A DNA stretch of 64,000 bases from Dehalococcoidia bacterium (lineage in GTDB: Bacteria > Chloroflexota > Dehalococcoidia > Plut-88900), in assembly GCA_965207225.1 (NCBI GenBank), contig CBDBLV010000005.1, positions 352,001 to 416,000 on the forward strand. Reading direction: 5' to 3'. Of this stretch, positions 27,072 through 61,860 are shown one piece after another. A program made the position numbers and the translations under genes. Numbering within the stretch: position 1 is the stretch's first letter; each line of letters opens with the position of its first letter. Under the pieces are notes generated by a model, which was given only the letters and a program-made list of their open reading frames with translations, searched no databases and was not told the DNA's origin.

Positions 27072-28709
27072 TTACAGACTGCCCAGCCTCAATTCGAAGA
27101 CGGTTCTGTCTACCGTCAAAATAGGCCCACCATCACGTTCTGTACTCATAACTCGTCCGGTCAGATCGACTTGCGCGGAATCCGCTCCCTTGATTGGACT
27201 ATCCTCTGGCGTCGGAATCGAGTAGACAATGACGGCCTTGCCCGGCCTGACTTCTATTTCCTTGACGAAGGACTGGACGAAGGCTCTGGTTTCTGTCACC
27301 TCGCTGCTCTTGAGGAACTCGCTCATCTCTTCTGCGAAGGCGGCGATGGTGTCGGCGCTGTCCAAAAACTGGCGGCGCTCTACCAATATCTTCCTCGCCT
27401 CCTCAGCGGCTATCTCCAGCCGCTCCTTGTTTGCCCGGTGCTCCCTGATGCGGTCCGCAGCATCTGTCATCTCGATGTCGCTGGTCTCTATGACATGCCA
27501 GATGCGGCCCAGCTTGCGCTTGACACCCTCCAGCTCTTTCTCCAGGGCCTCAAGCCTCTTTCTTTGCTGTCTCGCCACCCCATCCATCTCCTCGTCCAAT
27601 AACCTCACCAGGTCGCGGATATTCGACTCAGTGAGAACATTATTCCTGATCTGGTCGATTATGAGTTTCTCGAAGATCCTCGCGTTCAGCCTGGGCGTAT
27701 CGCAGGCCTCCGGTCCCTGCTTGAGCAAGGTTTGGCAAACATAGTAGTTGTACCTGCCACTCTTGGCCTCGCCCGCGGTCAGGGCCTTGCCGCAAACATC
27801 GCACCTCACCATCCCGCTCAACAGGTAGGGGCTTGAGGCCTGCCTGGGGTGCACCCGCGAGGGAGCTCGGGACCCCAAGAGTTTCTTTACACGGCGGTAC
27901 TCAGCCTTGGTCACGATTGCCGGGAAGGCGTTCTCCACCCTCACCGGGGGAGCGCCGTCCCTGGCCTCGGTACCCCACACCAGCGTCCCGGTGTAGACCT
28001 CATTGTCGAGTATGGACTGGATGGTTGTCTTGATCCACTTCCTGCCCTTGCGGGTGGGTATGCCCTCGGAGTTCAGGGTCCTGGTCACGTCCAGGAGGCT
28101 CCTGCCCTGGAGCGCCATCTCGAAGATGCGCCGCACCACGGCGTCGGCGGGCGGGTCAAGCTCCAGCTTGGGCCTCTTCTTTGCCCCGTCCTGGACGTAT
28201 ACCCTCCGGTAGCCATAAGGGGCCGTACCAGTAACCCAGAAACCACGGGACGACGCCTCTCGCATCCCCCTCGTAACCTCCTGGGCCAGATTCTCCGAGT
28301 AGAACTCGTCCACGCTCTCGATGATGGCCTCCATAAGCTTGCCTGTGGGGGTATCGTCGGCATGCTCGGTGATGGACACCACCCTGATGCCTCTCCGTCT
28401 TAGCATGGACTTGAAGGCAACCGCATGTTCCCGCTTGCGGGTGAACCGGGAGAACTTCCAGACCAGGATCTCCCGGAACGGGGCCTCCGGCCTGCCTGCC
28501 TCGTCCAGCATCCTCTGGAACTGGGGCCTGTGGGATATACGCCCGCTCTCGGCCTCATCAACGTATTCGCGTACGACGAGATAGCCGTTCCTCTTGGCAT
28601 GGTCCCTCAGCGCCCTCAACTGGGCGGCCACCGACAGGTCCACGTCCTGCCGGTCGCTGGACACGCGGGCGTAGAGGGCCGCCGGTATCAATTCGCTGTC
28701 TATTCTCAT
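27072..28709 (-). CDS. large serine recombinase / integrase (resolvase, recombinase and Zn-ribbon domains)
   Basis: YARVSS catalytic Ser, SRFTR, APYGY, YLLSGMVRCDVCG...YYVC...C, coiled coil. Confidence 0.95.
   Translation of the reverse strand: MRIDSELIPAALYARVSSDRQDVDLSVAAQLRALRDHAKRNGYLVVREYVDEAESGRISHRPQFQRMLDEAGRPEAPFREILVWKFSRFTRKREHAVAFKSMLRRRGIRVVSITEHADDTPTGKLMEAIIESVDEFYSENLAQEVTRGMREASSRGFWVTGTAPYGYRRVYVQDGAKKRPKLELDPPADAVVRRIFEMALQGRSLLDVTRTLNSEGIPTRKGRKWIKTTIQSILDNEVYTGTLVWGTEARDGAPPVRVENAFPAIVTKAEYRRVKKLLGSRAPSRVHPRQASSPYLLSGMVRCDVCGKALTAGEAKSGRYNYYVCQTLLKQGPEACDTPRLNARIFEKLIIDQIRNNVLTESNIRDLVRLLDEEMDGVARQQRKRLEALEKELEGVKRKLGRIWHVIETSDIEMTDAADRIREHRANKERLEIAAEEARKILVERRQFLDSADTIAAFAEEMSEFLKSSEVTETRAFVQSFVKEIEVRPGKAVIVYSIPTPEDSPIKGADSAQVDLTGRVMSTERDGGPILTVDRTVFELRLGSL
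27103..27132. other. att-like site A within the integrase 3' end
   Basis: GTTC-N17-GGCCCACCA, same spacing as the motifs at 52976 and 61594; GGCCCACCA resembles a tRNA 3' end. Confidence 0.6.
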
Positions 28710-28773
28710 TGATTCACTCCCCTCCCTGAATCAGGATCGAAGGTTTTGATCTTCCATTCCTCTCTGGTTCCGG

Positions 28774-29205
28774 TCATTCCAGCAGCTTCTTGTTGGTGAA
28801 TCGCTCGTACATCTCTACTATGAAGCGCTTGGCACTGAGGGAGAGGGGACCGTATGGCCGGGTCCCCACCCGGAATACGGGGTCGTCTAGAACGTACCGG
28901 TAGGCCCGCTCCACCTCCAGGGCTTCCTCGCCGTAGGGGTCGGGTCTGCGGGTGTGTCCTGCTCGTTTCATCAGCTCCCCCCGGTCCACGTTGTACACGT
29001 CGGCCAGCTTGCCGATGATGTTAGAGCCCGGCCTGCGGTCTCCCCTCTCTATCTGGGAGAGGTAGGATGCGGAGATACCAGTGCGCTGCATAATGTCCCT
29101 CAGGCTCAGTTCTCCCCGCAGCCGCCGGAGCAGGGGCCCGATCTCCTCGTTGCCCTCTATCTCCCTGCTGACTTCAGGGTCCCGGTTGTCGCCAGGTTCG
29201 TCCAT
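28774..29205 (-). CDS. XRE-family repressor (ImmR/CI-like position)
   Basis: LRRLRGELSLRDI...GISASYLSQIERG; upstream of the integrase and divergent from the HTH operon. Confidence 0.85.
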   Translation of the reverse strand: MDEPGDNRDPEVSREIEGNEEIGPLLRRLRGELSLRDIMQRTGISASYLSQIERGDRRPGSNIIGKLADVYNVDRGELMKRAGHTRRPDPYGEEALEVERAYRYVLDDPVFRVGTRPYGPLSLSAKRFIVEMYERFTNKKLLE

Positions 29206-29481
29206 GGTGGTTCCCCCTGCGCCGCCTCATGAGCGGACGTTTATGGTATAAAGCCTCCTGCTGGAATGATGCAATATAATTGTTACACAGTTGGCACTAA
29301 TTGGCAAGCATTTTGGAGCATAAGCTTCAATACAGCGGTTATCATCTTGTGAATCACACTGCTAATTATTACACTTACGCTAACATAGTAATTATTCTAT
29401 ATGGTTCATTCCAGTATACGGCAGGAAAGGATTTCCGGGCTGCCCTCGCGGCGGTCCGGACCATCGGGAGCACCGGATCCA

Positions 29482-29655
29482 ATGAGCGGCAGGCGGAAGC
29501 AAAGACTCACGGCGAGGCAGGAGCGCCAGCGCATCGAAGGGCTGCGAGTCCTGGCCCGCATTATTGCCCGCCACTACCTCTCCAACCCTCGCCTTTACGA
29601 CAACGGGGCGGTTCCGAAAGGGCTTGAGGCGGCCCGCAAGGAGGAACAACCATGA
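29482..29655 (+). CDS. small basic hypothetical protein
   Basis: MSGRRKQRLTARQERQRIEGLRVLARIIARHYL; ATGA overlap with the next gene. Confidence 0.6.
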   Translation: MSGRRKQRLTARQERQRIEGLRVLARIIARHYLSNPRLYDNGAVPKGLEAARKEEQP

Positions 29656-29891
29656 AGCGCAGGCAACCCTCATCAAAGGTCCGGCTCAACACGCGGAGGG
29701 TCTGGGAGCTGCTAAACCGGCTCAACATGTCCCAGAACGAGCTGGCTGCCAGGGCAGGCACTTCCTCGGGCTACCTCTCCCAGCTTATTTCCGGTACCCG
29801 TCGGCCCTCGCCGTCCCTTCGCAAGCGGCTCATGGAGGCATTGGGCGTCACCCGGTTCGACGACCTGTTTATCCTCGAGGTCGTGGAGTGA
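29652..29891 (+). CDS. XRE-family HTH protein
   Basis: MSQNELAARAGTSSGYLSQLISGTRRPS; GAGGA RBS. Confidence 0.85.
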   Translation: MKRRQPSSKVRLNTRRVWELLNRLNMSQNELAARAGTSSGYLSQLISGTRRPSPSLRKRLMEALGVTRFDDLFILEVVE

Positions 29892-30220
29892 GAAGCGGCC
29901 TCCTGCCTCCCCACCTTATCATCGAGGACGGCCTCTTGCCGGAGGATTTTGCAGGGCGCATCGAGGCCTTTAAGGAGGCGACCGGCCTTTCCTGGAATGC
30001 ACTGGCCGCCTGCCTGGGAGTGGATCCCCGCCAGCTTCAGCGCTGGCGCAGGGGCACCAAGCCCAGCGGGGACGGCCTGTGCGCCCTTATCCTTCTTGCC
30101 GCCCGCATACCGGGCGGGGTTCGCATCCTTATGGGGGTGGACGTGATGCAGCCCTTGGAGACGCATCAACCTTCCTACGTTCTGGGACTCGGCCGGTATG
30201 GGAACCATCGGGAGGGTTAG
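29888..30220 (+). CDS. XRE-family HTH protein
   Basis: GTG start overlapping the upstream TGA; LPEDFAGRIEAFKEATGLSWNALAACLGVD...RWRRGTKPSGDG. Confidence 0.8.
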   Translation: MRSGLLPPHLIIEDGLLPEDFAGRIEAFKEATGLSWNALAACLGVDPRQLQRWRRGTKPSGDGLCALILLAARIPGGVRILMGVDVMQPLETHQPSYVLGLGRYGNHREG

Positions 30221-30231
30221 GGCCTTTGGGG

Positions 30232-30522
30232 GTGCAGCATCGGGTCCGCAGACCCATTCAGTTCGACTTCCCGGCCGACTTTCCCGAGCGTTTGGCACTC
30301 TTCAAGGAGGCCAGTGGGCTGAGCTGGAGGGAACTGGCCCGGCTCCTGGGGGTCAGGCCCTACCGGCTCTGGCAGTGGCGGAAAAGGAGGGTGGTGCCCA
30401 ACGCCACCCACCTCTTCCTGCTGTTGACTGTGGCCGAGGCGATGGGGCTGCGGGACGGGGCCCTGATGTGTGCCGAGCGGGACCTGCCCGCGGGTGGGGA
30501 CCTGGGGGACCCTCAGCGATGA
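30232..30522 (+). CDS. XRE-family HTH protein (start approximate)
   Basis: FPADFPERLALFKEASGLSWRELARLLGV...WQWRKRRVVP. Confidence 0.75.
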   Translation: MQHRVRRPIQFDFPADFPERLALFKEASGLSWRELARLLGVRPYRLWQWRKRRVVPNATHLFLLLTVAEAMGLRDGALMCAERDLPAGGDLGDPQR

Positions 30523-30983
30523 TGTGTCTGATGGAAATCGGCCCTGCCGGTCTGAGCAAAAGAGCCTATCCCTGTGGAATTGAGAATGAGGTTGAACTCG
30601 TCGTCTGTCTGATTTTTCTTGTCGGGCCTTTGCTGCACTCGAATGGTCAATCGTCCATCTCCCGCAACGGCCAGAGTGGGGTTTAGGATATCTCGGCTTT
30701 CCAAAAGGCTCTGTACCGAGAAGTCTAGTGTCGGGAGGGTGCGCAGCAGGTGGTGCCGCTCCAGGGAAATGCCTGAAATGATCAACTCGCGACCATGTCC
30801 ACCTTCATCGAAGACACCGACAGCCCCATACCGGGCGTTGGTCAGCGAATGGGCCCCTTCCACGACCTCCTGAAGCACGGTGTCGAGGTCCCAACTCTCG
30901 GTGATGCGACGGTTGACCTCGCTTAGCTTGGCAAGCCGAGTGCGCAACTTGTCAATCTCCCGGACTTCCAAGTCATTCCACAT
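30513..30983 (-). pseudogene. truncated copy of the GAF sensor kinase
   Basis: RRITESWDLDTVLQEVVEGAHSLTNARYGAVGVFDE matches 59090..; similarity ends near 30730 and is followed by unrelated sequence. Confidence 0.85.
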
Positions 30984-31039
30984 AATTGACGGTTTCGCTT
31001 CTAATCTATTGCACGGAGCTGCGATGGTACGTGAAGAGC

Positions 31040-31110
31040 TTTCACAAAAGTACTCTAAGTTTTCACGGGCTCTTTCACGTAAAAGGGGTTGATTTTCACG
31101 CCTATTTCAC
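31040..31110. promoter_or_regulatory. five-box TTTCAC array (OmpR-type binding sites), copy 1
   Basis: Boxes at 31040, 31061, 31073, 31094, 31105 (spacing 21/12/21/11). Confidence 0.75.
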
Positions 31111-31158
31111 AGCCCTCCTCTATGTTGAACGACATCAAGATTCCAGGAGGGGCGTCAG

Positions 31159-31242
31159 ATGAATAGATTGTTAGTCAGAGACCAACGTATCCGGCCAAGG
31201 CCATGTACCTATCTAGGCTCCTGCAAGACGAAGATTGATTAA
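31159..31242 (+). CDS. putative 27-aa peptide MNRLLVRDQRIRPRPCTYLGSCKTKID
   Basis: AGGAGG RBS; overlaps the hairpin GGCTCCTGCAA...TTGCAGGAGCC (31216-31278). Confidence 0.35.
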   Translation: MNRLLVRDQRIRPRPCTYLGSCKTKID

Positions 31243-31333
31243 TGATCGTGTTACTTTGCTTCTCGCTTTGCAGGAGCCGAACAACAAAAGATGAAGGACA
31301 TAGGCAAATGAGGCTTCAAATACCTAGTCGAAA

Positions 31334-32197
31334 ATGAGAAGTCCAATGAGTACAACGATCAAGCTCACCGCAATTCTGACACTAGCAATAGCTGTGATCT
31401 TGGGTTTCCATGTGGTAACCGCGCAGATGGTCGCAGCTGAAGGCCCTGATGAACCTCGGCTCCAAGGAGAGGGTGTAATTACCTATAATCCGCCTAATAG
31501 ACCCGCCTTGATGGACCCTGTTCGCAGTGTCGTTCAGGGCACTCGCGTGGATGGTGAATGCGTCATCACTTACACTGTATCGATAAACTCCAATGAACCA
31601 TCCAAAGTCACTCGTACGGTGGCCTTCAATCCGATCACATGTGAAGAACTTATTGAACAAGGAACATTGAGTCAGCAAGAGACCGAGGTGGATGGGTCCC
31701 CTACGAAGGAAACCACACCGAAGGACGAAGGAATTGGCACAGATTCTCAAGGCGGAGCAACTTATTCTGCGTCCTCTCTCCCAAGAAAGACCAAAACTTT
31801 CAAGGCAACTTGGGAGGATCCCGTTCACCTTGATGTGAATTGGCAAAAGACCAAAATGACATGGGAGTATGACAGCGAGAATAACATTGTTAATTACTTG
31901 AGCGGTCTGTGCACATGGTACTGGCTAACCACCACGGGGTGGACGGCAGACCCGGACGAGGAATGTAAACAATACTCGCAGGCTAACGGGTCTCGGCACG
32001 TAGTTGAGGCGAGTAGAGGATTCACAAACAAAAACTTTCCCTGCTTTATTCTGGGTAATCCCAAGGTAGGCGCGAAAACTCGGATGGACAATCAAAAGAT
32101 TACAGCCAATGCCGATGGAACATACTCTGGCTCAGTTGACTTCTCAAAGAGCGGAGACTGCGCTTGGTTGCTACACAATGAAACAAGCTGGGAATAG
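31334..32197 (+). CDS. secreted two-domain Cys-containing protein
   Basis: Signal peptide, N-domain with 2 Cys, acidic/Thr linker, C-domain with 4 Cys. Confidence 0.8.
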   Translation: MRSPMSTTIKLTAILTLAIAVILGFHVVTAQMVAAEGPDEPRLQGEGVITYNPPNRPALMDPVRSVVQGTRVDGECVITYTVSINSNEPSKVTRTVAFNPITCEELIEQGTLSQQETEVDGSPTKETTPKDEGIGTDSQGGATYSASSLPRKTKTFKATWEDPVHLDVNWQKTKMTWEYDSENNIVNYLSGLCTWYWLTTTGWTADPDEECKQYSQANGSRHVVEASRGFTNKNFPCFILGNPKVGAKTRMDNQKITANADGTYSGSVDFSKSGDCAWLLHNETSWE

Positions 32198-32303
32198 CCT
32201 GGAATTCGTGATGAGTCACAGAATTCGAACGGCATCCGGGGCACAATGGTTAACGTTATTGTTGTCGGCCATAAAAATCTAAAGGTCTCGATAGGCATGC
32301 ACA

Positions 32304-32355
32304 GCAGGGGTAGTCGTAAGAAATAATGTAAGTATCCTGCTACGACTACCCCTGC
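32304..32355. terminator. 15-bp stem-loop between the secreted gene and its partner
   Basis: GCAGGGGTAGTCGTA...TACGACTACCCCTGC. Confidence 0.6.
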
Positions 32356-32378
32356 ACCTTACTCCGTGACCAGTTGTC

Positions 32379-32783
32379 ATGTGCATTAGGTTGAGGAGAA
32401 CGACTGTCGGGATGGAGCTCAGTGAATTGTGGGCCTCGAACATTATCAAATATAGTGCACCTATCGTTACAACGGTCGTGCTCGTCTTGACCGTTTTGTT
32501 CGTCTCCTATTACCTAATGCTGTGGCCATTCCAACCTAGATTGGAAGTGGATGATCCCGTTATCTCCGAATGGCTGCAGCAAGACGGAGTTGTCATTTAT
32601 CGCACTGGTGAAAAATTGGCCGACAGTCGCATGTACATCACTGACGGTGAGAGAATCGAAGGTGGTTGTAGCTGGCAAGTTAGTGTTTCCGGGTCTGATG
32701 ACTATGTAATCATCAGCAGAGAACTGGCCACAAACCACATTACATGTGAAACCTTGGTAGAAGAGGGCAGGCGGCTTGATTAG
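32379..32783 (+). CDS. membrane-anchored protein homologous to the N-domain of 31334..32197
   Basis: One TM helix; G.R..G.C...R..A.N.ITCE.L.E.G shared with the upstream protein; start may be 32412. Confidence 0.75.
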   Translation: MCIRLRRTTVGMELSELWASNIIKYSAPIVTTVVLVLTVLFVSYYLMLWPFQPRLEVDDPVISEWLQQDGVVIYRTGEKLADSRMYITDGERIEGGCSWQVSVSGSDDYVIISRELATNHITCETLVEEGRRLD

Positions 32784-33229
32784 CCTATAGGGCAGGAGTG
32801 GATTATGCGGTTATTGCTCATATTGCCAGTCCATATGTTGGCCTGCACCTCCGGCTCTGGGTCCTGGGAGGCGCGTGCAGAACTGTACCAATACCTTGAC
32901 AGGGTGCGACTATGCACGCAGAGAACAGGGCGCAATTCGAGCATTTGACAACTGTTACCTTTGCCCCGACAGCCTCTCGAGTGAATACTGGCCCCACTGT
33001 GCCCACTCCTACGAATGAGGAGTTGAAACAATACAGCTTTTCTTAGTTTGCGCCCAGGCTGGCCGATCTCTCGCGGACTAGCCGTTTCCTCCAGGGACAA
33101 CTTGACGAGCTAAATGCTATGGCGGTACCGGATGAACATAGAGACCTTCACGGTGACCTAATTGCCATGTGGGAAGCGGACATCGCTTGGGTGGAGGATT
33201 GGCTGGAGCCAACGCAGGACTACGTTGCG

Positions 33230-34190
33230 TATCTGTGGGCGTAAGATTGGGAGAGCATCGAGGAAGGGCCGCACGCCGTTGTCCTAGATGGGCCGGTGGG
33301 TGGAGTAGTAGTGCAGGTAGGGAGCGAGGCGGGCCGCCATGGTGACGGGCCGTCAGGCCCTGCGCTCCCACTCGAGGAAGAAGGCCCACCGTGCGCCGTC
33401 CCGCTCCAGGATGCCGAAGGCGTCGGGGTGTATCGAGCGCCTGGCCCCGAAGTAGCGGAAATACCGGGACGCCCTGTGTGGTGGGTCGAGCTGTGCGGTC
33501 TCCCAGCAGAGGCTGTGGGCCTGACGGGATAGTGCTCCAACGAACCCGTGGACGGCCACCCGTGTGGTTCAAGTTCCTGAGGAGCTGGCGGGTGCGCCTC
33601 CTGGACACGCTCCGCCAGTCTACAGCGTCGTTCGGAAGGGCGTTTCACCTCTTCCTGGCCTCTCCTACGGAGGTGCGGTCCCTGCGAGCCAGCGCCGCTA
33701 GTCCTCTGTCGGCCAGGGCAAGGCTTCATCCCGAGGACGGGGTGCGGATGACCAGCCCCAAACCCTCCAGTGGACGTACGACCTGGGAGGCCCGGGAGCG
33801 GGAGACGCCCATCAGGCCAGTCAGGTCCTCCAGGCCCAGCAAGGGCCACTCGGAGAGTAGGTCCAGGGCCCGCTTCTCGGCGGGCCGCAGCAGGACGGGC
33901 AGCAGGCAATCGGGGACGGCAGCACCTGGGTCGTGTGGGCCGATGGCCGGGGGCATGGATGTCCCCCGCAGTAGTGGTCTCTCGACGGGCAGGGCGCCCC
34001 TGGGCTGCAGTCGTACCAAGGCCTCTTAGAGGGTCACCGTGCGGTTGAAGGATCCCTGGCGCCACACCGAGGCGTCTGGGCCGGCCCGCGGCCGCGTGGG
34101 TCTCTAGGTAAAACAGGGCCAGGACGGTAGTCCTGGCCAACAGACTGCGGGCATGGCGCAGGCGCACCTCGTCGAGCATTATCATGAGAA
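33230..34190 (-). pseudogene. frameshifted, 5'-truncated paralog of the 1713..3338 relaxase
   Basis: Pieces in different frames: DEVRLRHAR, LPVLLRPAEKRALDLL..WP, RTRQLLRNL, SIHPDAFGIL...FFLEWERRA. Confidence 0.85.
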
Positions 34191-34657
34191 TGGCTCAGTT
34201 ACGCGGCGAAACCGGTGACAACCCAAGCCCCATTGGGGGATAAGAGCAGGGCGATTCCACCAGTGAGCCTCTATGTCCAGGCGACGCTGGCAGGGTCTCG
34301 GCTCTGCAACAATTGTCCCGTTTCGACCTGTTGGGGGCTGACACCGTAGGTGTCGGGTGGCCCTTTAGTCCCCCTATAGGAAGCCGCAGGAATGGACTGT
34401 GACCATGGGTCGGATGTCCTCCGGCGGCCATGATGGGGTTATTCATAGAGGTGCCCGGTGATGAGGACGTAGCTACTATCCAAAGCTGACGGGCAATGAA
34501 GAAGTGGGGTTGCCGTAATGTCCCCTGACGTGTCAGTCCTGCACCAAATTGCAGTCGGGAGGGTGCAAGGTACATGAGGGGATGCAAGTTGCAGGAAAAC
34601 GGGCCAGGTAGCCATGCCGGGAGCCCCCTACAGGAAGTGGCGGCAACGGACTGGTGG

Positions 34658-50808: not shown

Positions 50809-50839
50809 TCGGTCAAAGCCAGCAAGGTAAACGGCTGTA

Positions 50840-51385: not shown

Positions 51386-51392
51386 TATTAGC

Positions 51393-53536: not shown

Positions 53537-53995
53537 TTAAAAGCGGCACCCTGCGTCTTTTAACACCTGGCGATCGGGCTCTGGTAGAGCGCCAATTGCC
53601 GCGACAACTACCACCCGCTTCTCCTTAACGTCAGTGTCCGCCATAAACAATGCCTCATCAACCTTCAAGGCGCGGTCTTGTTCCTCAGCAAATGTCAGCA
53701 GGGTCTCGTAATAGTCCACTGCGGCATCACGAAACTCTCGCATGCCTTGCGGTGGATCATAGCGCAGCAGTTGAATTGCCCACGTTAGATCGCCGGCTAA
53801 GTTGGGCCAACCTAGAGCAGAGTATTCCGGCCTTTCAGGGCCGCAGACATCATCGGCAAACCACATCATCTCTTCCTCGCGACTCATGGGTTCTACCCAA
53901 TCGGGGGTTGGCTCAGGGCTGCTGCACGCTGCAAGGGTAATTGGTAATGCCAAGACGCCCAGCGATAAGAATGTTAAACGAGTCACTTGCGTCAT
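53537..53995 (-). CDS. putative lipoprotein
   Basis: Lipobox-like TLAAC; helical acidic body; start approximate. Confidence 0.65.
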   Translation of the reverse strand: MTQVTRLTFLSLGVLALPITLAACSSPEPTPDWVEPMSREEEMMWFADDVCGPERPEYSALGWPNLAGDLTWAIQLLRYDPPQGMREFRDAAVDYYETLLTFAEEQDRALKVDEALFMADTDVKEKRVVVVAAIGALPEPDRQVLKDAGCRF

Positions 53996-54002
53996 TTCCG
54001 CC

Positions 54003-54041
54003 GGCCCGGGGGCTGCTCCCATGTGGAGCAGCCCCCGGGCC
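54003..54041. terminator. perfect 17-bp stem-loop between the secreted gene and the lipoprotein
   Basis: GGCCCGGGGGCTGCTCC-CATGT-GGAGCAGCCCCCGGGCC. Confidence 0.7.
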
Positions 54042-54048
54042 ACTATTC

Positions 54049-54729
54049 CTACCATGTTATCCAGTACACCGTGTAGGTGTCGCCGAATATCTGCCACAGG
54101 TCGGCCCCATCGCCGTTTCGGAAGCGATGGTCTCCCCAGACGCCGTATTTGTGTCCTGGTACGGCGCCACGAGCTCGGCTGATAACCCTAGCGGGGGTCA
54201 CACCGCACGGCTCGATTTCGTCCGTTGCCGTCCAGAAGATTCTGTCTGAGTCAGGCCATACGCGCTTCGACCGGCCCTTGACCCAACAGTTGTCTATCTG
54301 GCCGCCGTATGTGACCCTTGTGCCTGTCACAGGCTGGATCCAATTGTAGCATTCTTCGGTTCTCCCGGCGTAAAAACCGGCATACCCCTCGGCGGTGCCA
54401 CCGCCCTGTTCCGAGGGAATAGCCTTCGTCCAGTACGTTAGCGTTAGCTCCTGCTGCTCCAAGCAGTCGCCGCCACTGTCCGCAGCGGTGTCGCCGTCAT
54501 CTGGAGTCGTGTGTTGCGGCGTCTTCCATCCGGCCTCGTATTCAGCCAGAGTAGGAATTGGCGGCAGAGGAGGCGGCACGAAATCGGATGGCAGTTCGAT
54601 GAACCCGTCGGCATCGACAGGCGGGGCGGTTTCGGGCTCTTCTGCATGCGCGGGCATGGCAAATAGGACCGCCAAGAGCGTGACGACCGCTAATACAGTG
54701 ACCAGTGCTGCAAATTTCTTGAGCTTCAT
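54049..54729 (-). CDS. secreted protein with Pro/acidic pro-region and Cys-containing C-domain
   Basis: Signal peptide ending AHA-E; GGGAGG RBS. Confidence 0.8.
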   Translation of the reverse strand: MKLKKFAALVTVLAVVTLLAVLFAMPAHAEEPETAPPVDADGFIELPSDFVPPPLPPIPTLAEYEAGWKTPQHTTPDDGDTAADSGGDCLEQQELTLTYWTKAIPSEQGGGTAEGYAGFYAGRTEECYNWIQPVTGTRVTYGGQIDNCWVKGRSKRVWPDSDRIFWTATDEIEPCGVTPARVISRARGAVPGHKYGVWGDHRFRNGDGADLWQIFGDTYTVYWITW

Positions 54730-54782
54730 AATGAACCTCCCAAAGTATCGGGTGTTAAGGGACGTTTAAGACTTGGGAGCAT
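54726..54782 (-). CDS. putative 18-aa leader peptide MLPSLKRPLTPDTLGGSL
   Basis: AAGGAGG RBS; stop overlaps the downstream start (ATGA). Confidence 0.35.
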   Translation of the reverse strand: MLPSLKRPLTPDTLGGSL

Positions 54783-54899
54783 TTCCGCCTCCTTTCATAA
54801 CGTTACCCGGCCAAGAGGACATCGACCATTGTCCGACTGCGCGGTTAGGCCAAGGTGGGGTACAAAGGGAAAGGGAAAAGGGGTGGTCGTGGTTGTCCG

Positions 54900-54965
54900 T
54901 TATGGACAGGTGCATGCGACGGGCGTTACCACAATGACCGGGCGGGGGAATGCCGTCTTGTTCAT
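54900..54965 (-). CDS. putative 21-aa peptide MNKTAFPRPVIVVTPVACTCP
   Basis: TAAGGAGG RBS 6 nt before the ATG. Confidence 0.4.
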   Translation of the reverse strand: MNKTAFPRPVIVVTPVACTCP

Positions 54966-55102
54966 TTCGGACCTCCTTATCATGTCGGGTCGGAGTCCTA
55001 TGATCCTTCGGGGCGTCGGTCAGGGGAGTGGTGGCCCTGTATCAACTTAAACACTTAGCACGTTGTCGGTTTCGCCGAGTGCCAACATCGTAGGAGAGGC
55101 TT

Positions 55103-55174
55103 GTGAAATAGCCGTGAAAAGCAACCCTATTTCCGTGAAAGAATCCGCAAAAAATTTGGGTAGGTTCCGTGAAT
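55103..55174. promoter_or_regulatory. five-box GTGAAA array, copy 2 (two boxes degenerate)
   Basis: Boxes at 55103, 55114, 55135, 55147 (GCAAAA), 55169 (GTGAAT). Confidence 0.7.
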
Positions 55175-55230
55175 GCTTTTCACGGAACTTCCCGGATAGG
55201 TGTCATCGAATCGTAACAAGGCGGATATCT

Positions 55231-55374
55231 ATGACGAGGGAAACGGCAGCCCAAGAGGTCGAAAGGCAGCGGGACCGCCCCGCCACCTTCAGCGAGGTCG
55301 GCCGTCGCATCACCGAGAGTTGGGACTTCGATACCGGGCTTCAGGAAGTCGTGGAGGGGGTCCGTTCAGCCTAG
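55231..55374 (+). pseudogene. short remnant of the GAF sensor kinase
   Basis: EVERQRDR..SEVGRRITESWDFDTGLQEVVEG then stop. Confidence 0.85.
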
Positions 55375-55560
55375 TGTGACGTCGGTCCTAACGGAGAACC
55401 TCTGCGAAGGCTGCTTCGAGGCGGGCGCCGCGGGAGATAGGAGAATTGTGGGCGGCACAGTGGCCCAAGACGTGGTTTTGCAAGGCGCGGGCCGCTCGAA
55501 CTTCGTGATGTGTAAGTTGCACGCAGGCGCGTGCGACAACCTCATTCAGCACCATACCCA
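55371..55560 (-). mobile_element. possible IS630-like transposase C-terminal fragment and IS end
   Basis: Minus frame ...VRAARALQNHVLGHCAAHNSP... ending near ...GTCACACTAG; weak resemblance only. Confidence 0.3.
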
Positions 55561-55720
55561 AATTCCGGGTAATGTCTCAGTTTTAGGGTTAGGAGATTGA
55601 AAGGTGTGCCGCGTACCCATAAAGGTCACTAGAGGCGGTGCCTCTTGGATTCACGGGAGTTTGGGACGCTCGCTTCAGCAACGTTCCAAAGTTGCCGCTC
55701 CCTTTCTCTGACACCAATTT

Positions 55721-55751
55721 AGGCCCTGGGGGTTACGCGACCCCAGGGCCT
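55721..55751. terminator. stem-loop downstream of the protease operon
   Basis: AGGCCCTGGGG...CCCCAGGGCCT. Confidence 0.6.
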
Positions 55752-55809
55752 CTTCAAATTTCTCTATAGTGACGTTCACGTTCTCGCGTTCCGACACTCT
55801 CCGAAGCCG

Positions 55810-56496
55810 CTAGTCAGTGTTGCCCGTCGGCCCCACTTCACCCGACTCGGGCTCGATAGCTCGCCTGATCTCGGACATTGCAAACGTCATCTCCCCAAAC
55901 ATGTCTTCTCTCGTGCCCCTTGGTTTGAGAATAACGGAGTCGTCTACCCTCCCTGTCGGCCCTACCTCACCGATGCCTCCCACAACATCGAACACCCCAT
56001 TATCCATGCTGACTCTAACGTAGTAATCGTCCACCGCGGTTATGCCCGGTGCATCCGCATCGTTGAGAAACAATAGGACCTGGTGCCCATTCAGCAAGGT
56101 TGTACTGTCCTCATCTATATCTACCCTATCCACATCTAGAGCTCCCACTACTATGGTTTTCACATCTTGGCCAAGCTCACCGCGTAGCACCTCGGTCACC
56201 GTTATTTCATAGAACACCACCGGAATGCCCCAGACTGCTCCCTCCGGAGGGTTTTCTTCTCCGTAATCGACGTCTCGGGCCACGACCTCTCCCATTGTTC
56301 CGACAATAACCAGATCAGACACGCTTGACAGCCCTTCTAGAGAGGAGTAGACCGGCATGTCTGCCTCCATAGCGATTCTGGGGCTCTCGACATCTCCCCG
56401 TGAAACGAACCAGATGGAAATAACCAGCAACGATGCTAGCATCGCCGCCATCACCGGCAGCAAAGTTCGGTTCTTCTGGTTGCCAAGCGCATTCAA
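55810..56496 (-). CDS. membrane-anchored extracellular protein
   Basis: N-terminal TM; YSSLEGL...SDLVIVGT...VTEVLRG...QVLLFL pattern. Confidence 0.75.
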   Translation of the reverse strand: MNALGNQKNRTLLPVMAAMLASLLVISIWFVSRGDVESPRIAMEADMPVYSSLEGLSSVSDLVIVGTMGEVVARDVDYGEENPPEGAVWGIPVVFYEITVTEVLRGELGQDVKTIVVGALDVDRVDIDEDSTTLLNGHQVLLFLNDADAPGITAVDDYYVRVSMDNGVFDVVGGIGEVGPTGRVDDSVILKPRGTREDMFGEMTFAMSEIRRAIEPESGEVGPTGNTD

Positions 56497-56610
56497 CAGG
56501 ACTATTTCTCCCTGGCTTGCTAGCCTAATGGTTGCGACGCTGCTTTAACCCAATCCCATTCAATAGGCCGACATCCATTCAACTACCCCGACGTGTTCAT
56601 AAAATTGAGC

Positions 56611-57474
56611 TTATTCGTGCCCTTCATGATCTTCCCTCCCTGTCCCCTGCCCGAGAATGCGTATGCTCCTGAATACGGAGACAGCAGTTCGCTGCTGCTC
56701 CGGCGTCAGGTCTTCGGCCACAATGTGGAGGTGGGGACCACCCGACCTGTGGAAGAAGGCAGCGGTGTACCCGGCCCCGGGTTCCATGGAAATGAGCAAA
56801 CTCGCTCTGACGTCACCTATGTCTTCATAGCCCATGACGTAGGTGTACTCTGGATCATCGGAAGGAGACCGGCTCCAAGAACGCCCGCCGAAATCAAAGG
56901 CCAGCCGGACTCCCTCGCCGGCAATTTCGCCTTTGTAGTACTTGATGTAATCGATCTCCTTGAGCACATTCAGTTCCCACCCGGGAGGTAGGCGCAGAGA
57001 GAATCCCGTCTGGCTCGGCCCTTCTGGAACCTCCACGACCCTCCAGTCCGGCGAGGGTTGTGCGTCTGCAACAGTATGCGGGATCAGTCCTATGATGCTC
57101 ACTGATTTCCCAGTGAGCTTGTCAACGATGGCCCTGTCTCCCAGAGGATCTTGAAGATGGACCTCGACGCCTTCGATGCAGTCATCCTCGCTCTGCCGGA
57201 AATCCGAGTCAACTTTGACTTTAACCTGCACTTCGTCATCCGTCTCACGCAAAAGCGATACGACCGGGTTTCTGTGGCAGGAGTCGGCGACAGTGAGTTC
57301 GAGCCTCTGAGGAGAATATAACCCCGCTTCAACTACCCTTGCTTCCCTTTGAGCCACACTTGCTTCGTTGCGCGACGTACACCCGCCGAGCAAGAACAAA
57401 GATGCGAAGACCAACAGCCCAATTACTACGACTGCTCCAACAATGCGTTGTCTACGGCTGGACCGGTCAACCAT
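56611..57474 (-). CDS. putative lipoprotein (ORF open up to 57594)
   Basis: Hydrophobic stretch ending LLGGC; two extracellular domains. Confidence 0.7.
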   Translation of the reverse strand: MVDRSSRRQRIVGAVVVIGLLVFASLFLLGGCTSRNEASVAQREARVVEAGLYSPQRLELTVADSCHRNPVVSLLRETDDEVQVKVKVDSDFRQSEDDCIEGVEVHLQDPLGDRAIVDKLTGKSVSIIGLIPHTVADAQPSPDWRVVEVPEGPSQTGFSLRLPPGWELNVLKEIDYIKYYKGEIAGEGVRLAFDFGGRSWSRSPSDDPEYTYVMGYEDIGDVRASLLISMEPGAGYTAAFFHRSGGPHLHIVAEDLTPEQQRTAVSVFRSIRILGQGTGREDHEGHE

Positions 57475-57522
57475 AACGTCTCTTAAACTAGCTGGCTGTG
57501 CCTTGTTGTGGGCCAATGTTAC

Positions 57523-57571
57523 GCGTGGCCCCGTGTGTGCCCCATTCAGTATGGCTTGCACAGGGCCACGC
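57523..57571. terminator. stem-loop between the protease and the lipoprotein gene
   Basis: GCGTGGCCC.GTG...CAC.GGGCCACGC. Confidence 0.55.
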
Positions 57572-57580
57572 ATCCCATGT

Positions 57581-58870
57581 TCAGTCGGACGCAACGTAAA
57601 CGCCCTTTAAGGCACTGGGCATGCGATCTGCCCGTGAGAAAACATCTCGCTTAATCGACGAGGTCGGGGGGTCATACACAAAGCCTTGATGAAGACCATA
57701 TGCCGAGTTGCCTAAGTACACAGGTCCGCCACTGTCACCATCCGCAGACAGACGCCCGGCCATTTGCACGAGATTGCACCTATGTCTGCTGCAGACGTTA
57801 AGCTTACGGACTCTTTGGCAGTCTCTGTGGCTCGTCAGACCGTTTCGGCAAAGCAACTGGCCCACTTCAGGAGATGCCACGAAAGATACATCTCTCAAGT
57901 TTACTTCGGTTGCGGAAGCACTGCCAGCATAGAAGTCGTCGGTGTGGGTCCCGGTTCCCGTATGCCACTGGAAGTCGCCGTATGTTCCCTCATACTCTAG
58001 CATCAAAGTCAGACTTATCCCGTCATCAGATAGATCGTCGGGACAATGTCCAGCAGTGGAAATGCCTCTCACACCTGTTGAGGTCTTCGTACCGAATCCC
58101 GATGTGCAATCAGGTCTACGACCTTCAATAAGGTCTTCACCACCACGATGTTCAGTTCTGCTATCGTTCCCTCCCAAATCTGAGCGTTCCGAGTGGGCCA
58201 CGGAGGTTGTAATGTTGTTGACAATGTCCGCCCTCGTTGCATCAGTGAGGTTCTTCACTGCGATGGCCTGGAGACCATCCAAAGTGGAGTTGGCAGATGT
58301 GCGTTCCAACACCACAATTGTGCTTATCTGGCCACTCGCGAAGTCGAAAGAAGTGTTGGCGTCGAGGACTTCTGTAGTATTGAGCACTGCATAGTGGGCC
58401 GCTTCGATCGCTCGTTGGAGCTCCGCTTCAGTGAATCCCTTGCCGGTGCGCACTTCCACTGCGACGCCACTGTGACTGCTCTTGAACGTGTTGATTATGG
58501 CAAGCGCCGACCTCGGGGCGCTGCCTGCGAAAGCGACCCATGCGTTATCGGCGTCTACAATCTCCGCTCCCGTGAAAGATTCAGGATGCGCTTCTCGAAT
58601 TTTCGAGACCGCCAAGGCGAAGTTGTCGTTCCATGCATAACGATCAATAACGGTCTGGAGAGACAAGCCAGATTGGTTGGCGAAGAACTGCAAGTCCTCT
58701 AACTCAGCGGCGCTAATAGTATCGTTGATTCCCGCTGGCGCCACATCCGGCAAATTAGAGGTCCTGTTTCCAGACACCTGAGCGTGCGCTACGCCCACGC
58801 TCGCAGTCACTAGGGCGATGATCATTAACAAAGCCACGAACATTACTTTTATGTCGGTTCTGTCCCTCAT
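57581..58870 (-). CDS. secreted S1-family (alpha-lytic/streptogrisin-like) serine protease with pro-region
   Basis: Signal peptide; CTSGF, TAGHC, GDFQW, GDSGGP. Confidence 0.9.
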   Translation of the reverse strand: MRDRTDIKVMFVALLMIIALVTASVGVAHAQVSGNRTSNLPDVAPAGINDTISAAELEDLQFFANQSGLSLQTVIDRYAWNDNFALAVSKIREAHPESFTGAEIVDADNAWVAFAGSAPRSALAIINTFKSSHSGVAVEVRTGKGFTEAELQRAIEAAHYAVLNTTEVLDANTSFDFASGQISTIVVLERTSANSTLDGLQAIAVKNLTDATRADIVNNITTSVAHSERSDLGGNDSRTEHRGGEDLIEGRRPDCTSGFGTKTSTGVRGISTAGHCPDDLSDDGISLTLMLEYEGTYGDFQWHTGTGTHTDDFYAGSASATEVNLRDVSFVASPEVGQLLCRNGLTSHRDCQRVRKLNVCSRHRCNLVQMAGRLSADGDSGGPVYLGNSAYGLHQGFVYDPPTSSIKRDVFSRADRMPSALKGVYVASD

Positions 58871-58962
58871 GATGCCTTCTCCTCTTTATCATTCCGTAGC
58901 CTTTACGCCACCCAATAGAGTCCTCCCTTCAACTGTGATGCTCGCTATGATGAACCTCCCGT

Positions 58963-59033
58963 GTGAAATATCAGTGAAAATCAACCCAATTGCCGTGAAA
59001 GCATGCGTGAAAATTTGAGATGTTTCCATGAAA
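58963..59033. promoter_or_regulatory. five-box GTGAAA array, copy 3
   Basis: Boxes at 58963, 58974, 58995, 59007, 59028 (ATGAAA); spacing 11/21/12/21. Confidence 0.75.
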
Positions 59034-59089
59034 ACCCTTCACAGAACGGCCTCTTAACGTATGATAGAGTCGAAACGAGGCGGTCATCT

Positions 59090-61480
59090 ATGAGAGACAA
59101 TTCGGAAGCACGAGAGATCGAAAGGCAGCGGGCGCGCCTTGCCATCCTGAGCCGCGTCAGCCGCCGCATCACTGAGAGCTGGGACCTGGACACGGTACTT
59201 CAGGAGGTGGTTGACGGGGCCCGTTCGCTGACCGACGCCCGCTATGGTGCAGTCGGCGTCTTCGATGAGGACGGGCGTGTTCGCCAGTTCATCACTTCGG
59301 GCATTACCCAAGAACAGCGCCGCCTGCTGGGCAGTCTGCCCAAGGGCCTGGGAATCCTCGGCTACCTGAACGAGATACAGGAGCCATTGCGGCTTGCGGA
59401 CCTCTCCGAACATTGCCGATCCGTTGGCTTCCCGGAGAACCACCCACCCATGAAGACTTTCCTGGGCGCCCCCATCCGGCGCCTGGGCAAGCCTGTCGGC
59501 AACATATACCTCACGGAGAAGGAGGGCGGGGAGTTCTCGGGAGAAGACGAAGAAACACTGGTTATGTTTGCGTCCCAGGCTGCCATCGCCATCAGCAACG
59601 CAATACGCCATGAGGATGAGCGGCAATCAAGGAACGCCTTGGAGACGGAGAGGCGTCGGCTGGTGGCCCTGGTGGAGTCCTCGCCGGTAGGCGTGATGGT
59701 GGTCGACGCGGCGACCAGGACTTTCGCCTCGGTCAACCAGGAGGCGGAGCGGATCCTCGGCATGTCGCCCGAGCCGGGATCAACGCTTGTAGACTATCAT
59801 CAGGTGGCGATCTATCGGAGGACGGATGGGAAGAGGTATGAGGATCACGACCGACCTCTGGCGAGGGCGCTGGACCGCGGTGAGGCCGTGCGAGCTGAGG
59901 AGATACTCGTAGATCTCCCGGGCGGACGAAAGGTGACCACCTTGGTGAATGCAACCCCCATCTATTCTGACGACGGGGAAATCGTCTCAGCTATCGCCGT
60001 TGTCCAGGATATGACGCCATTGGAGGAGATGGAACGCCTGCGCAACGAGTTCCTAGCCATGGTAAGCCATGAACTGAGGACTCCCCTGACCACCATCAAG
60101 GGGTGCACGGGTGTAGTGTTGGGCAGCACTGAGCCGATGGACATCTCCGAATTGCTCCAGTACTTCCGGATGATTGATGAGCAGTCCGACCACCTGCGCG
60201 GACTAGTCAACAACTTGCTAGATATGACCCGAATAGAGGCTGGGGCCTTGTCGGTAACTCCCAAACCTGCTGAGGTGGCGTCCCTGGTTAGCGAGGCAAA
60301 GACCGCGTTTTTGCGTAGGGGAGCGCGTCACACGGTAGACGTGGACCTCGACTCCGACCTGCCCATGATCTCAGCGGATGGGCGTCGCATCACCCAAGTC
60401 TTGGACAACCTGCTGTCCAATGCATCGAAATATTCGCCGGAGTTCTCCAGGATCAGGATAACCGGATCAAGAGAGGGGTTTTTCGTAGTCATCTCCGTAA
60501 CGGATGAGGGAAGAGGAATACCTCCTGAACAATTGGCCAGGCTGTTCAAAAAGTTCTCTCGTCTGGACGACAGGGAAACGAAGAAGAAGGTTGCAGGGGA
60601 GGGGCTGGGACTGGCGATCTGCAGAGGCATAGTCGAAGCGCATGGTGGTCGCATCTGGGCCGAAAGCGAAGGAGAGGGCAGCGGCACTCGGATATCCTTT
60701 GCGATTCCTGAAGCCGTCGAAACTTCCCTGGAGGCGGGCACTCCTGCGTTGGTATCGGCACAGGGCGAGCAAAAGAGAATCCTGGCCGTAGACGACGAAC
60801 CTCAGGTGCTCTGGCTCCTACGGAACATTCTATCCAAACAAGGATATAAATTTCTTGGTGCAGCCAACGCCGACGAGATGAAGCACCTGCTGGACACTGA
60901 GCAACCCCATCTTGTCCTGCTCGACCTGATGTTGCCCGGTACCAGTGGGTTCGAGCTGATGGAACGAATTCGCGAGGTTTCGAAAGCTCCAATCATCTTC
61001 CTGTCCGCCAACGACCAGGAGGAGAACGTGGTGAAGGCCCTTGAGATGGGAGCCGATGACTACATGATCAAGCCGTTCTCCTCCACCGAACTGTTGGCCA
61101 GAATCGAATCATCCCTTCGGAAGCAAAGACCGGTCGATACGCCTGTTCCCATTCCGTTCTATCACGTGGATGACTTGCGCATAGACTACGCGCAACGGAG
61201 CGTCTCCCTATCCGGAAATCCCGTGCATCTGTCCGCGACGGAATACAAACTTCTTTCCGAACTCTCGACTAACGCTGGTCGCACCCTCACACAATACCAA
61301 ATACTGCAGCGGGTCTGGGGAAAGACATACTCGACTGAAAGTGAGTTGCTTCGCGCAACAGTCAAAAACCTGCGCCGCAAGCTCGGGGACGATGCTAACA
61401 ATCCAAAGTACATTTTCACCGAGCCCCGCGTTGGCTATCGGATGCCGAGTTCTGTGAAGCAAAAGGAGGGCCAAAAATGA
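59090..61480 (+). CDS. fused GAF-PAS-histidine kinase-receiver-OmpR wHTH protein
   Basis: GAF (GFPENHPPMKTFLGAPI), PAS, SHELRTPL, NLLSNASKY, DEGRGI, GLGLAI, VDDEP, LDLMLPG, KPFS, YIFTEPRVGY; no TM helix; start chosen by comparison with paralogs. Confidence 0.92.
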   Translation: MRDNSEAREIERQRARLAILSRVSRRITESWDLDTVLQEVVDGARSLTDARYGAVGVFDEDGRVRQFITSGITQEQRRLLGSLPKGLGILGYLNEIQEPLRLADLSEHCRSVGFPENHPPMKTFLGAPIRRLGKPVGNIYLTEKEGGEFSGEDEETLVMFASQAAIAISNAIRHEDERQSRNALETERRRLVALVESSPVGVMVVDAATRTFASVNQEAERILGMSPEPGSTLVDYHQVAIYRRTDGKRYEDHDRPLARALDRGEAVRAEEILVDLPGGRKVTTLVNATPIYSDDGEIVSAIAVVQDMTPLEEMERLRNEFLAMVSHELRTPLTTIKGCTGVVLGSTEPMDISELLQYFRMIDEQSDHLRGLVNNLLDMTRIEAGALSVTPKPAEVASLVSEAKTAFLRRGARHTVDVDLDSDLPMISADGRRITQVLDNLLSNASKYSPEFSRIRITGSREGFFVVISVTDEGRGIPPEQLARLFKKFSRLDDRETKKKVAGEGLGLAICRGIVEAHGGRIWAESEGEGSGTRISFAIPEAVETSLEAGTPALVSAQGEQKRILAVDDEPQVLWLLRNILSKQGYKFLGAANADEMKHLLDTEQPHLVLLDLMLPGTSGFELMERIREVSKAPIIFLSANDQEENVVKALEMGADDYMIKPFSSTELLARIESSLRKQRPVDTPVPIPFYHVDDLRIDYAQRSVSLSGNPVHLSATEYKLLSELSTNAGRTLTQYQILQRVWGKTYSTESELLRATVKNLRRKLGDDANNPKYIFTEPRVGYRMPSSVKQKEGQK

Positions 61481-61559
61481 GGACGTTGACGGCAATTTCA
61501 GACAAGGAACGGTCCACTTGACCGAGGTTAAATCAATCGGAATCATACACCGATCATCG

Positions 61560-61860
61560 CAGCGCTAGCTAGATAGGTATCTCCCACCTAAAAGTTCGCA
61601 GTACAGTACGCGATGGCCCACCAGTTTACGCCTGAGACCGTCGGGGACTCGAACTTTTCTGGCCATCGAACAGGTGCGGGAAATCAAGCTGGGCCGTAGC
61701 GGAGTCCTGTAGCGTCAACACAACACTGGGAGGTCGGGGTGTCCTCCCCCTGCCGGGCAACGTATACACTCTTCATATGATGCCGGCTTGGAGGGATACC
61801 GAGGGTCGGGGCTTCATTGCTCTGGCTACGCCACCGATCGTTAGCCTTCCCTTCACCCTC
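61560..61860. repeat. diverged ~300-bp direct repeat, copy D, containing an att-like motif
   Basis: GTTC-N17-GGCCCACCA at 61594-61623 plus the 30-bp block shared with copy C. Confidence 0.8.

Follow-up and report, generated by a model that had tools for sequence, protein, structure and literature searches.

What do three copies of a short motif, one of them lying within the 3′ end of a large serine integrase gene, say about how a stretch of bacterial chromosome was put together? The question arises in a 64,000-nt stretch of a Dehalococcoidia bacterium (GenBank assembly GCA_965207225.1, contig CBDBLV010000005.1, positions 352,001 to 416,000; hereafter the window), in which a first-pass annotation read the three copies as attachment (att) sites and the whole as an "integron-like platform run by a serine integrase". 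Our comparison of the window with the rest of the genome leads us to propose, with a probability of roughly 0.8, that the three motifs are att-site junctions between integrative elements, which lie in a tandem array and are moved by large serine integrases. The earlier interpretation is partly supported: it was largely right on the nature of the sites and wrong on the integron analogy. Positions below are those of the window unless they carry a contig label, C5 being the contig that holds the window. The units that meet at the three sites, which we call E0, E1 and E2, are as follows, a prime marking an arm that is inverted:

1721–27132: E0, the right-hand ~25 kb of a conjugative element of alpha type, resembling an integrative and conjugative element (ICE), recognized from sister copies and ending in an alpha arm plus core
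27133–53004: E1, an integrase-bearing island of 25.9 kb, with a gamma′ arm in the integrase at its start and a gamma repeat at its end
53005–61623: E2, an integrase-less unit of 8.6 kb resembling a cis-mobilizable element (CIME), bounded by two gamma-core-delta sites

On the plus strand, all three sites read GTTC-N17-GGCC(C)A(C/T)CA. A window scan with the strict pattern GTTC-N4-TAY-N-GT-N7-GGCCNAYCA gave two plus-strand matches, 27103–27132 and 61594–61623, against 0.00 expected from 100 shuffles, while the site at 52976–53004 keeps GTTC, TAT, GT and the 17-nt spacing around a core that is one base short (GGCCATCA). The motif is thus present where it had been reported, at 27103, 52976 and 61594 on the same strand and at 17-nt spacing, the bracketed C of the pattern covering the short core at 52976. 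The 9-mer core GGCCCACCA occurs 94 times in the genome against ~72 expected, and GTTC stands 17 nt upstream of it in 26 of these copies against ~0.3 expected. Each of the 18 genomic occurrences of the strict pattern is an alpha or gamma arm, and its abundance reflects the number of elements and not chance. Neither ARAGORN nor Rfam at the gathering threshold found a tRNA or RNA family in the window, so the sites are not themselves tRNA genes or known RNAs.

The evidence is clearest at the first site, which consists of these parts:

27072–28709, minus strand: large serine integrase of 545 aa, with Resolvase, Recombinase and Zn_ribbon_recom domains
27102–27123, plus strand: alpha half-site, the P-type arm at the right end of E0, with 0 mismatches to the alpha motif
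27124–27132, plus strand: core GGCCCACCA, junction 1, taken as the left attachment site (attL) of E1; identity with three other loci ends at 27132
27133–27155, plus strand: gamma′ half-site, the inverted gamma arm in the 3′ coding end of the integrase gene, with 4 mismatches in 18

When the 20–40-kb part of the window was compared with the genome by blastn, the 993 nt at 26140–27132 proved 100% identical to C5:2004415–2003423, C3:10531–11523 and C4:710001–709009. This identity stops at 27132, the final base of the motif, 60 nt within the integrase open reading frame (ORF), and two further loci match just the last 51–60 nt before 27132 and stop there too. To the right, the body of the integrase gene aligns with ~30 paralogs at 67–75% identity. 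The left arm is common to four loci, each with a different right side, and 27132/27133 is therefore a recombination joint. An insertion sequence (IS) lies at the left boundary of the identical tract, its position coinciding exactly with a jump in similarity to the three sister loci from 89.7% (23657–24251) to 100% (26140–27132).

The integrase gene straddles this joint, and its final 19 codons come from the left unit: residues 1–526 are encoded in E1, the remaining 19 residues and the stop (27072–27074) in E0. The alpha half-site at 27102–27123, which on the minus strand encodes part of this tail, also ends 15 other units, and the earlier suggestion that the neighbour donates the tail of the integrase is borne out. 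Both peptides quoted in support of it are present on the minus strand. The integrase ends in GGPILTVDRTVFELRLGSL followed by its stop, and at 61.6 kb the frame that would continue the integrase if joined at the core reads GGPSRTVLRTFRWEIPI followed by a stop; as the sequence stands, this frame is directly preceded by a TAA stop. The protein itself is a large serine recombinase by its Pfam domains (PF00239, 1.2e-31; PF07508, 6.3e-22; PF13408, 4.8e-12), with 34 paralogs in the genome at E<=1e-50.

Throughout the genome, the paired sites have the form of serine-integrase att sites, with ~22-bp arms set as an imperfect inverted repeat around a 9–10-bp core (e.g. beta-core-alpha′). By eye, the gamma′ half-site of the window agrees with the gamma arm at 61593–61614 at 16 of 22 positions, and gamma and gamma′ agree at 16–17 of 22 in three elements. 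A scan for further sites, which the first-pass annotation had called for, found 48 att-like sites by half-site motifs; two are probably spurious, leaving ~46. Their arms fall into three classes, reading toward the core as GGTTCTGTCTACCGTCAA (alpha), GGTTCTTGATTTCGTCCA (beta) and AGTTCGCAGTACAGTACG (gamma), and each class is found left of a core and, inverted, right of one. The combinations are tRNA-alpha′ (5), tRNA-gamma′ (1), alpha-beta′ (7), alpha-gamma′ (2), beta-alpha′ (8) and gamma-beta′ (3), the others being one-armed. None of the 20 two-armed sites joins two arms of the same class (permutation P=4e-5), which suggests that elements avoid landing beside their own kind or that such tandems get lost.

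The core, as had been surmised, is a tRNA 3′ end. At seven of the 49 tRNA genes in the genome, those for Ile(gat), Ala(tgc), Lys(ctt), Val(tac), Gln(ttg), Val(gac) and Met(cat), an integrase 3′ end abuts the CCA, directly after which the element arm begins; the genes for Ile(gat), Lys(ctt) and Met(cat) have GGCCCACCA as their last bases, and it is there that they meet paralogs of the window integrase gene. At these sites GTTC is the tRNA T-loop. GTTC and GGCC are 11 nt apart in tRNA T-arms, as the first-pass annotation had said, and 17 nt apart in element arms. The difference of 6 is suggestive of the ~5 bp by which attP-type and attB-type half-sites of large serine integrases differ in the spacing of the outer motif.

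Arms and integrases go together. By manual count, 17 of the 19 alpha′ and gamma′ arms lie <=150 nt from the 3′ end of an integrase gene that reads into them, and at all 13 left beta arms a B-type integrase, ~50% identical, reads in from the opposite side. Where an A unit comes after a B unit, convergent integrase genes overlap across a single site. Outside the window we observe seven such convergent pairs (C3:23303–26403, C3:57433–60557, C3:85308–88420, C4:734112–737236, C4:871795–874919, C5:1960474–1963574 and C5:2030765–2033889), their 3′ ends overlapping by ~50–70 nt across one beta-core-alpha′ site; the A-type members are 60–64% and the B-type members ~50% identical to the window integrase.

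The listing of sites and units also shows the tandem stacking that had been proposed. A gamma site lies downstream of each of the three gamma′ integrases, at 14.8, 18.5 and 25.9 kb, and for 20 of 27 successive sites that could be evaluated, the right arm of the one and the left arm of the next downstream belong to one class, a count that includes three hand-added sites (405004, 589615 and 1990340). One matched array of five units, starting at tRNA-Met, spans 78 kb (C5:1912002–1990340), and the array of the window itself has sites at C5:379132, 405004, 413623 and 442112. Among near-identical duplications of 10–11.5 kb, three of seven stop at, or ~47 nt past, att cores. Two that end at an att core are C4:725035–735694 versus C4:903396–892737 (10.7 kb, 100%) and C3:1–11523 versus C5:2014937–2003423 (11.5 kb, 98.8%), one of them extending to a contig end.

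Relatives carry the same arrangement. We confirmed 398 integrase relatives in a species-representative collection; among the best 80, 79 are titled Dehalococcoidia, Tepidiformaceae, Chloroflexi or Chloroflexota and one Acidimicrobiia. In 53 of these 80 loci an opposite-strand tRNA, representing in all 16 anticodons and nine amino acids, overlaps the end of the integrase ORF, with the tRNA 3′ end near integrase residue 527–529 and the stop codon anywhere from a few to >200 nt away. In five of nine loci checked in relatives, unrelated sequences lie to the right of an alpha arm plus core. A strong integrase match is present in 56 of 201 sampled genomes of the class, and in this sample a first look gave 62 candidates in the genome studied here, the highest number, the next being 38.

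The second and third sites of the window lie at the ends of a dispersed repeat and are composed of:

52891–52996, plus strand: gamma terminal repeat, copy 1, at the right end of E1, with its P-type arm at 52975–52996 (nhmmer E=3.8e-31, full length)
52997–53004, plus strand: junction 2, with the damaged core GGCCATCA, one base deleted and one C changed to T
53005–53113, plus strand: delta arm, copy 1, right of junction 2, 75–82% identical to 61624–61733
61508–61614, plus strand: gamma terminal repeat, copy 2, with its P-type arm at 61593–61614 (nhmmer E=4.8e-31; 0 mismatches to the gamma motif)
61615–61623, plus strand: junction 3, with the intact core GGCCCACCA
61624–61733, plus strand: delta arm, copy 2, the start of the next unit

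Positions 52946–53113 and 61564–61733 form one repeat, 75% identical, and the gamma family of ~120 nt to which they belong is represented in the genome by five complete members (nhmmer E<=5e-31) and six partial ones (E<=1.5e-5). All copies end at the core, where similarity between them stops and the flanks diverge; no shared neighbour gene was found around them. The gamma arm of copy 1 has 2 mismatches to the gamma motif, and the deletion in its core shifts the frame of the integrase tail readable from there, whereas the tail read from the 61623 site is in frame with the integrase. Since the core at 53004 is damaged and frame-shifted and that at 61623 is intact and in frame, we think that 27133–61623, the same span as that given in the first-pass annotation, is the unit that might still excise, with junction 3 as the likely working right attachment site (attR) of E1 plus E2. 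The unit that follows 61623 reaches another gamma site 28.5 kb on, beyond the window, and has no integrase. No integrase remnant was found at 52.9 or 61.6 kb, the integrase matching itself alone when compared with the window by tblastn.

We had at first taken the 120-nt repeat for a repetitive extragenic palindromic (REP)-like or 3′ untranslated region element, because it adjoins the 3′ side of plus-strand genes and its neighbours are unrelated by Pfam. Its profile misses the integrase site and no protein-level echo of the integrase was seen at the other two sites, so that the link to the integrase seemed a 9-mer coincidence. This view was overturned, and the candidate dropped, when genome-wide blastn and the core listing showed junctions.

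In the reading that we favour, an att site of this family consists of a 9-bp core identical to the tRNA 3′ end and flanking half-sites of ~22 bp, in three classes (alpha, beta and gamma), each matching one integrase subfamily; the junctions, the arm classes, the pairing of arms with integrases and the arrays are observed. The ends of an element each carry one arm, in inverted orientation, so that its circular form would have a symmetric attP (e.g. gamma-core-gamma′). The integrase of the window belongs to the gamma class, with attL at 27132 (alpha-core-gamma′) and, as we read it, attR at the gamma site 61623, while the gamma site at 53004 would be an older internal junction with a damaged core; 61623 would accordingly be the live site, and E2, having no integrase, could move only with help. 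The recombination was presumably catalysed by these integrases, with the crossover probably at or near the terminal CCA. As the crossover would fall within the integrase ORF, the left neighbour, whether a tRNA gene or the end of another element, would encode the last codons and the stop.

Several observations weigh against this reading. The IS at the left boundary of 26140–27132 means that the identical tract, which looks like a conversion tract between the IS and the att junction, may have arisen by gene conversion instead of marking a recent integration. Within the window we found neither the left end of E0 nor an integrase of its own, the nearest integrase-like match leftward being C5:347344–348879 at 27% identity. 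The delta arm fits none of the three classes; its alignment with gamma′ by MAFFT is weak and begins only past an 11-nt gap, and comparison of the delta flanks with nine integrase 3′ regions (blastn, tblastx) gave at best E=0.008, over a short stretch on the wrong strand. On its minus strand, delta carries a T-loop-like string, GTTCGAGTCC, ~31 nt from the core. The pairing of successive arms fails in 7 of 27 cases, in a count that the hand-added sites enter. Since the genome is a metagenome assembly, 92% complete and with 8.3% contamination, some copies may derive from a second strain; long near-identical duplicates total only ~66 kb. Repeated integration at a tRNA-type target, as originally envisaged, stands in part: the junctions and the stacking support it, and tRNA genes ending in the core are found elsewhere in the genome, but no tRNA heads the array of the window within the window or the flank examined.

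Finally, no excised circle or empty site was seen in public assembled contigs. Of five runs from two studies, we compared four, each consisting of assembled contigs, with positions 44000–63999; contigs of the probable source sample bridge 53004 and 61623 unchanged, and the run from the second study yielded scattered conserved pieces only. Among the joints and loose ends listed, none lay at 53004 or 61623, the listed joints being short skips within genes that come from other organisms or paralogs. Because contigs drop rare variants, we regard the lack of excision forms as neutral.

The alternative that survives best is that the array is a fossil: the sites would be past serine-integrase junctions, E1, E2 and their neighbours would now be fixed, and the integrase with its foreign tail would be inactive in place. 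The damaged core at 53004, the absence of an integrase from E2 and the following unit, the limited likeness of the delta arms (75–82%) and the lack of alternative joints in public contigs fit such a history, which we consider possible, if doubtful. Conversely, the integrase ORF is uninterrupted and still encodes its three domains, junction 3 at 61623 has kept its full core, and both the flanks at 100% identity and the identical copies of the IS indicate that events in this genome were recent; rare circles would be invisible in contigs.

Much less probable is an origin of the mosaic by homologous recombination between dispersed repeats, the 120-nt gamma repeat and the ~60-nt alpha end, in place of site-specific exchange. 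These lengths permit occasional exchange, and the IS-bounded identical tract looks like gene conversion. Arms of different classes, however, share only the 9-bp core, yet are joined there at 20 two-armed sites; tRNA genes are joined exactly at CCA; the arms are inverted copies on either side of the core, and an integrase gene reads into them; and the absence of same-class junctions is the opposite of what homology-driven exchange predicts.

We give slightly less weight still to the integron-like platform, on which one serine integrase would capture successive cassettes at one site. Integrons have a tyrosine integrase (IntI), an attI site with the promoter Pc, folded attC sites and small promoterless cassettes on one fixed platform. 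The array resembles them in that units accumulate successively at recombination sites, lie head to tail at sites sharing one core and, in two instances here, lack an integrase. It departs from them in its serine integrases, of which there are 34 strong paralogs with three or more arm classes, and in its units of 8.6–34 kb, which carry their own regulators, in E0 conjugation genes, and mostly their own integrase. Arrays begin at seven different tRNA genes, and we see no fixed arrangement of integrase, primary site (attI) and promoter.

That the motif recurs by chance, or as an ordinary intergenic repeat of REP or miniature inverted-repeat transposable element (MITE) type with no link to an integrase, can practically be set aside: nhmmer with the 120-nt repeat misses the integrase site, the core alone is not rare and the repeat lies mostly downstream of genes, but GTTC keeps its fixed 17-nt offset far beyond expectation, homology breaks exactly at the core, and a gamma site follows every gamma′ integrase, which is not the behaviour of a REP or MITE.

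The gene content of the units fits mobile elements of different kinds. E0 contains:

1713–3392: Replic_Relax protein, relaxase-like (Pfam)
3338–5902: TrwB/TraG-like coupling protein (Pfam)
5951–8314: TraG P-loop/TraC-like ATPase, VirB4-like (Pfam)
10646–11626: TrbL/VirB6 protein (Pfam)
24250–26140, minus strand: insertion sequence within E0, with a DDE_Tnp_1_4 transposase at 24507–26069 (Pfam and copies)
26251–26957, plus strand: VapBC-like pair at the right tip of E0, an AF2212-like antitoxin (26251–26535) and a PIN toxin (26535–26957) (Pfam)

The conjugation genes at 1713–11626 identify the unit left of the integrase island as a conjugative element, with sister copies 88–94% identical at C4:732239–709009, C5:2028944–2003423, C1:181156 onward and C3:1–11523. 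The IS has seven other copies at 99.9–100% identity, and three sister E0 loci are contiguous across its insertion point. The VapBC-like pair sits within the 993-nt tract shared at 100% identity with three other loci.

Besides the integrase, E1 and E2 contain:

28774–29205, minus strand: helix-turn-helix (HTH) regulator of Xre type adjoining the integrase (Pfam HTH_31/HTH_3)
33220–36679, minus strand: conserved family backbone, a 321-aa protein (33220–34185) and a Replic_Relax protein (34658–36679) (blastn, Pfam)
43805–50808, plus strand: cargo of E1, a ResIII helicase (43805–46894), an N6_N4 DNA methylase (46899–49724) and a 350-aa ORF (Pfam)
59003–61480: hybrid histidine kinase/response regulator in E2 (Pfam)

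Copies of the backbone, 65–78% identical in nucleotides, lie beside other integrases, and E1 also encodes a 1507-aa protein. By its domains, the cargo at 43805–50808 looks like a defence system, and a sister element upstream of C5:1944391 likewise encodes a ResIII protein. The cargo beside the gamma ends of three sister elements looks defence-related: the helicase and methylase in the window, a ResIII protein in the second (L014:1287–4091), and DUF4420 nuclease-like, Exo_endo_phos and HEPN proteins in the third (L017:3870–7506). The E2 part 53540–61444 is paralogous, in three segments of 68%, 84% and 88% identity, to C5:1455391–1464577, a unit a few kb from the gamma site C5:1469193.

Two further traces lie inside the array. 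A relic of ~230 nt on the plus strand (50859–51085), opposite to the window integrase, resembles the 3′ coding part of alpha-class integrases (69–76% in nucleotides); no att core or arm was recognizable in a search near 51090. A repeat in three copies of 71–74% identity (30740–31111 on the minus strand, 55083–55367 and 58962–59333) takes in the sequence upstream of the hybrid histidine kinase gene together with its initial ~110 codons; at 30.5–31.0 and 55.1–55.4 kb these copies are short ORFs, apparently truncated paralogs.

The closest described parallel comes from Dehalococcoides, where, as reported by McMurdie et al. (2011, PMC3146451), tandem islands lie downstream of the transfer-messenger RNA (tmRNA) gene ssrA, each having next to its attL a serine recombinase of 540 aa, DsiB. 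By that account dsiB always overlaps attL and takes its stop codon from the island upstream or from ssrA, DsiB was suggested to be fully functional maybe only on the circle or beside a suitable neighbour, and integrase-less islands were read as accreted cis-mobilizable elements. The islands here share with those described the reverse-strand serine recombinase of ~540 aa at attL with an ORF crossing attL to an outside stop, the tandem stacking next to a small-RNA gene with some units lacking an integrase and, by homolog titles, the bacterial class, the integrase being likened to DsiB by its published description. They differ from the published account in that the targets are tRNA genes (seven here) or element ends and not a single tmRNA gene, the shared repeat is 9 bp against 20 bp, and the six-gene module (DsiA small serine recombinase, RecF-like, ParB, Mom and an embedded tRNA-like gene) was not recovered by Pfam beside the integrase; the division into arm classes, the B-type integrases in mirror image and the lack of junctions between arms of one class likewise set them apart from the Dehalococcoides islands as described. 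Our catalogue holds no att site beside the tmRNA gene of this genome (C1:198772–199125), and by Pfam the ORFs at 28774–32783 include an HTH protein only, with no second resolvase or ParB, while ARAGORN detected no tRNA-like gene in the window. By analogy, we regard the system as a variant of the Dehalococcoides islands that probably works in the same way.

More distant systems share single features. The Ccr recombinases of SCCmec target the protein gene rlmH/orfX, and ccrA and ccrB lie in tandem inside the element and not across the att site. Like the elements here they are large serine recombinases that build composite or tandem cassettes at the 3′ end of a conserved gene, whereas our integrase gene spans the att site and its target is not a protein gene. 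Streptococcal ICEs and CIMEs use tyrosine integrases and longer identical att repeats; there too an element with an integrase and an adjacent one without it have att sites in common and can move jointly, in contrast to the serine integrase and short core found here. In the integration-dependent immunity of mycobacteriophages, attP lies inside the repressor gene, the integrase is a tyrosine integrase, and an effect of the changed C-terminus has been demonstrated. Integration alters a protein C-terminus through an attP inside a gene in both systems; any effect of the tail swap here would fall on the serine integrase and not on a repressor.

The tRNA islands of tyrosine integrases, as described with the Islander database (PMC4383910), resemble our arrays in using tRNA 3′ ends, in leaving a displaced 3′ fragment at the far end and in forming tandems, and differ in that a serine integrase is at work here and the repeated tRNA fragment is just the last 9 bp. 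According to that 2014 paper (PMC4383910), serine integrases were not known to target tRNA genes, and the word "tRNA" is absent from the full text of a large 2022 serine-recombinase survey. Our full-text literature searches found no description of large serine integrases at tRNA genes, which is no proof that there is none.

Taken jointly, these features lead us to posit, tentatively and from sequence comparison, a Dehalococcoidia guild of tRNA-CCA-targeting serine-integrase elements with at least three arm classes, one of them a mirror image in which the B-type integrase would sit at the right end and read outward. Landing on tRNA ends and on the ends of other classes, never on their own, would amount to a homotypic exclusion that builds mixed arrays, and the integrase tail, exchanged with each integration or excision, would report the integration state and could gate activity.

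The finding means that a whole family of serine integrases targets tRNA genes, the classic landing sites of tyrosine integrases, with a core that is simply the tRNA 3′ end. The matched classes of integrases and arms provide a natural data set on half-site recognition by large serine integrases, and might offer a route to integrases aimed at a near-universal sequence. The family makes regulation by an integration-dependent C-terminus, an idea put forward by McMurdie et al. (2011, PMC3146451) in their account of the Dehalococcoides islands, directly testable. For the plasticity of these genomes, it helps to explain how sizeable parts are assembled from stacked mobile units.

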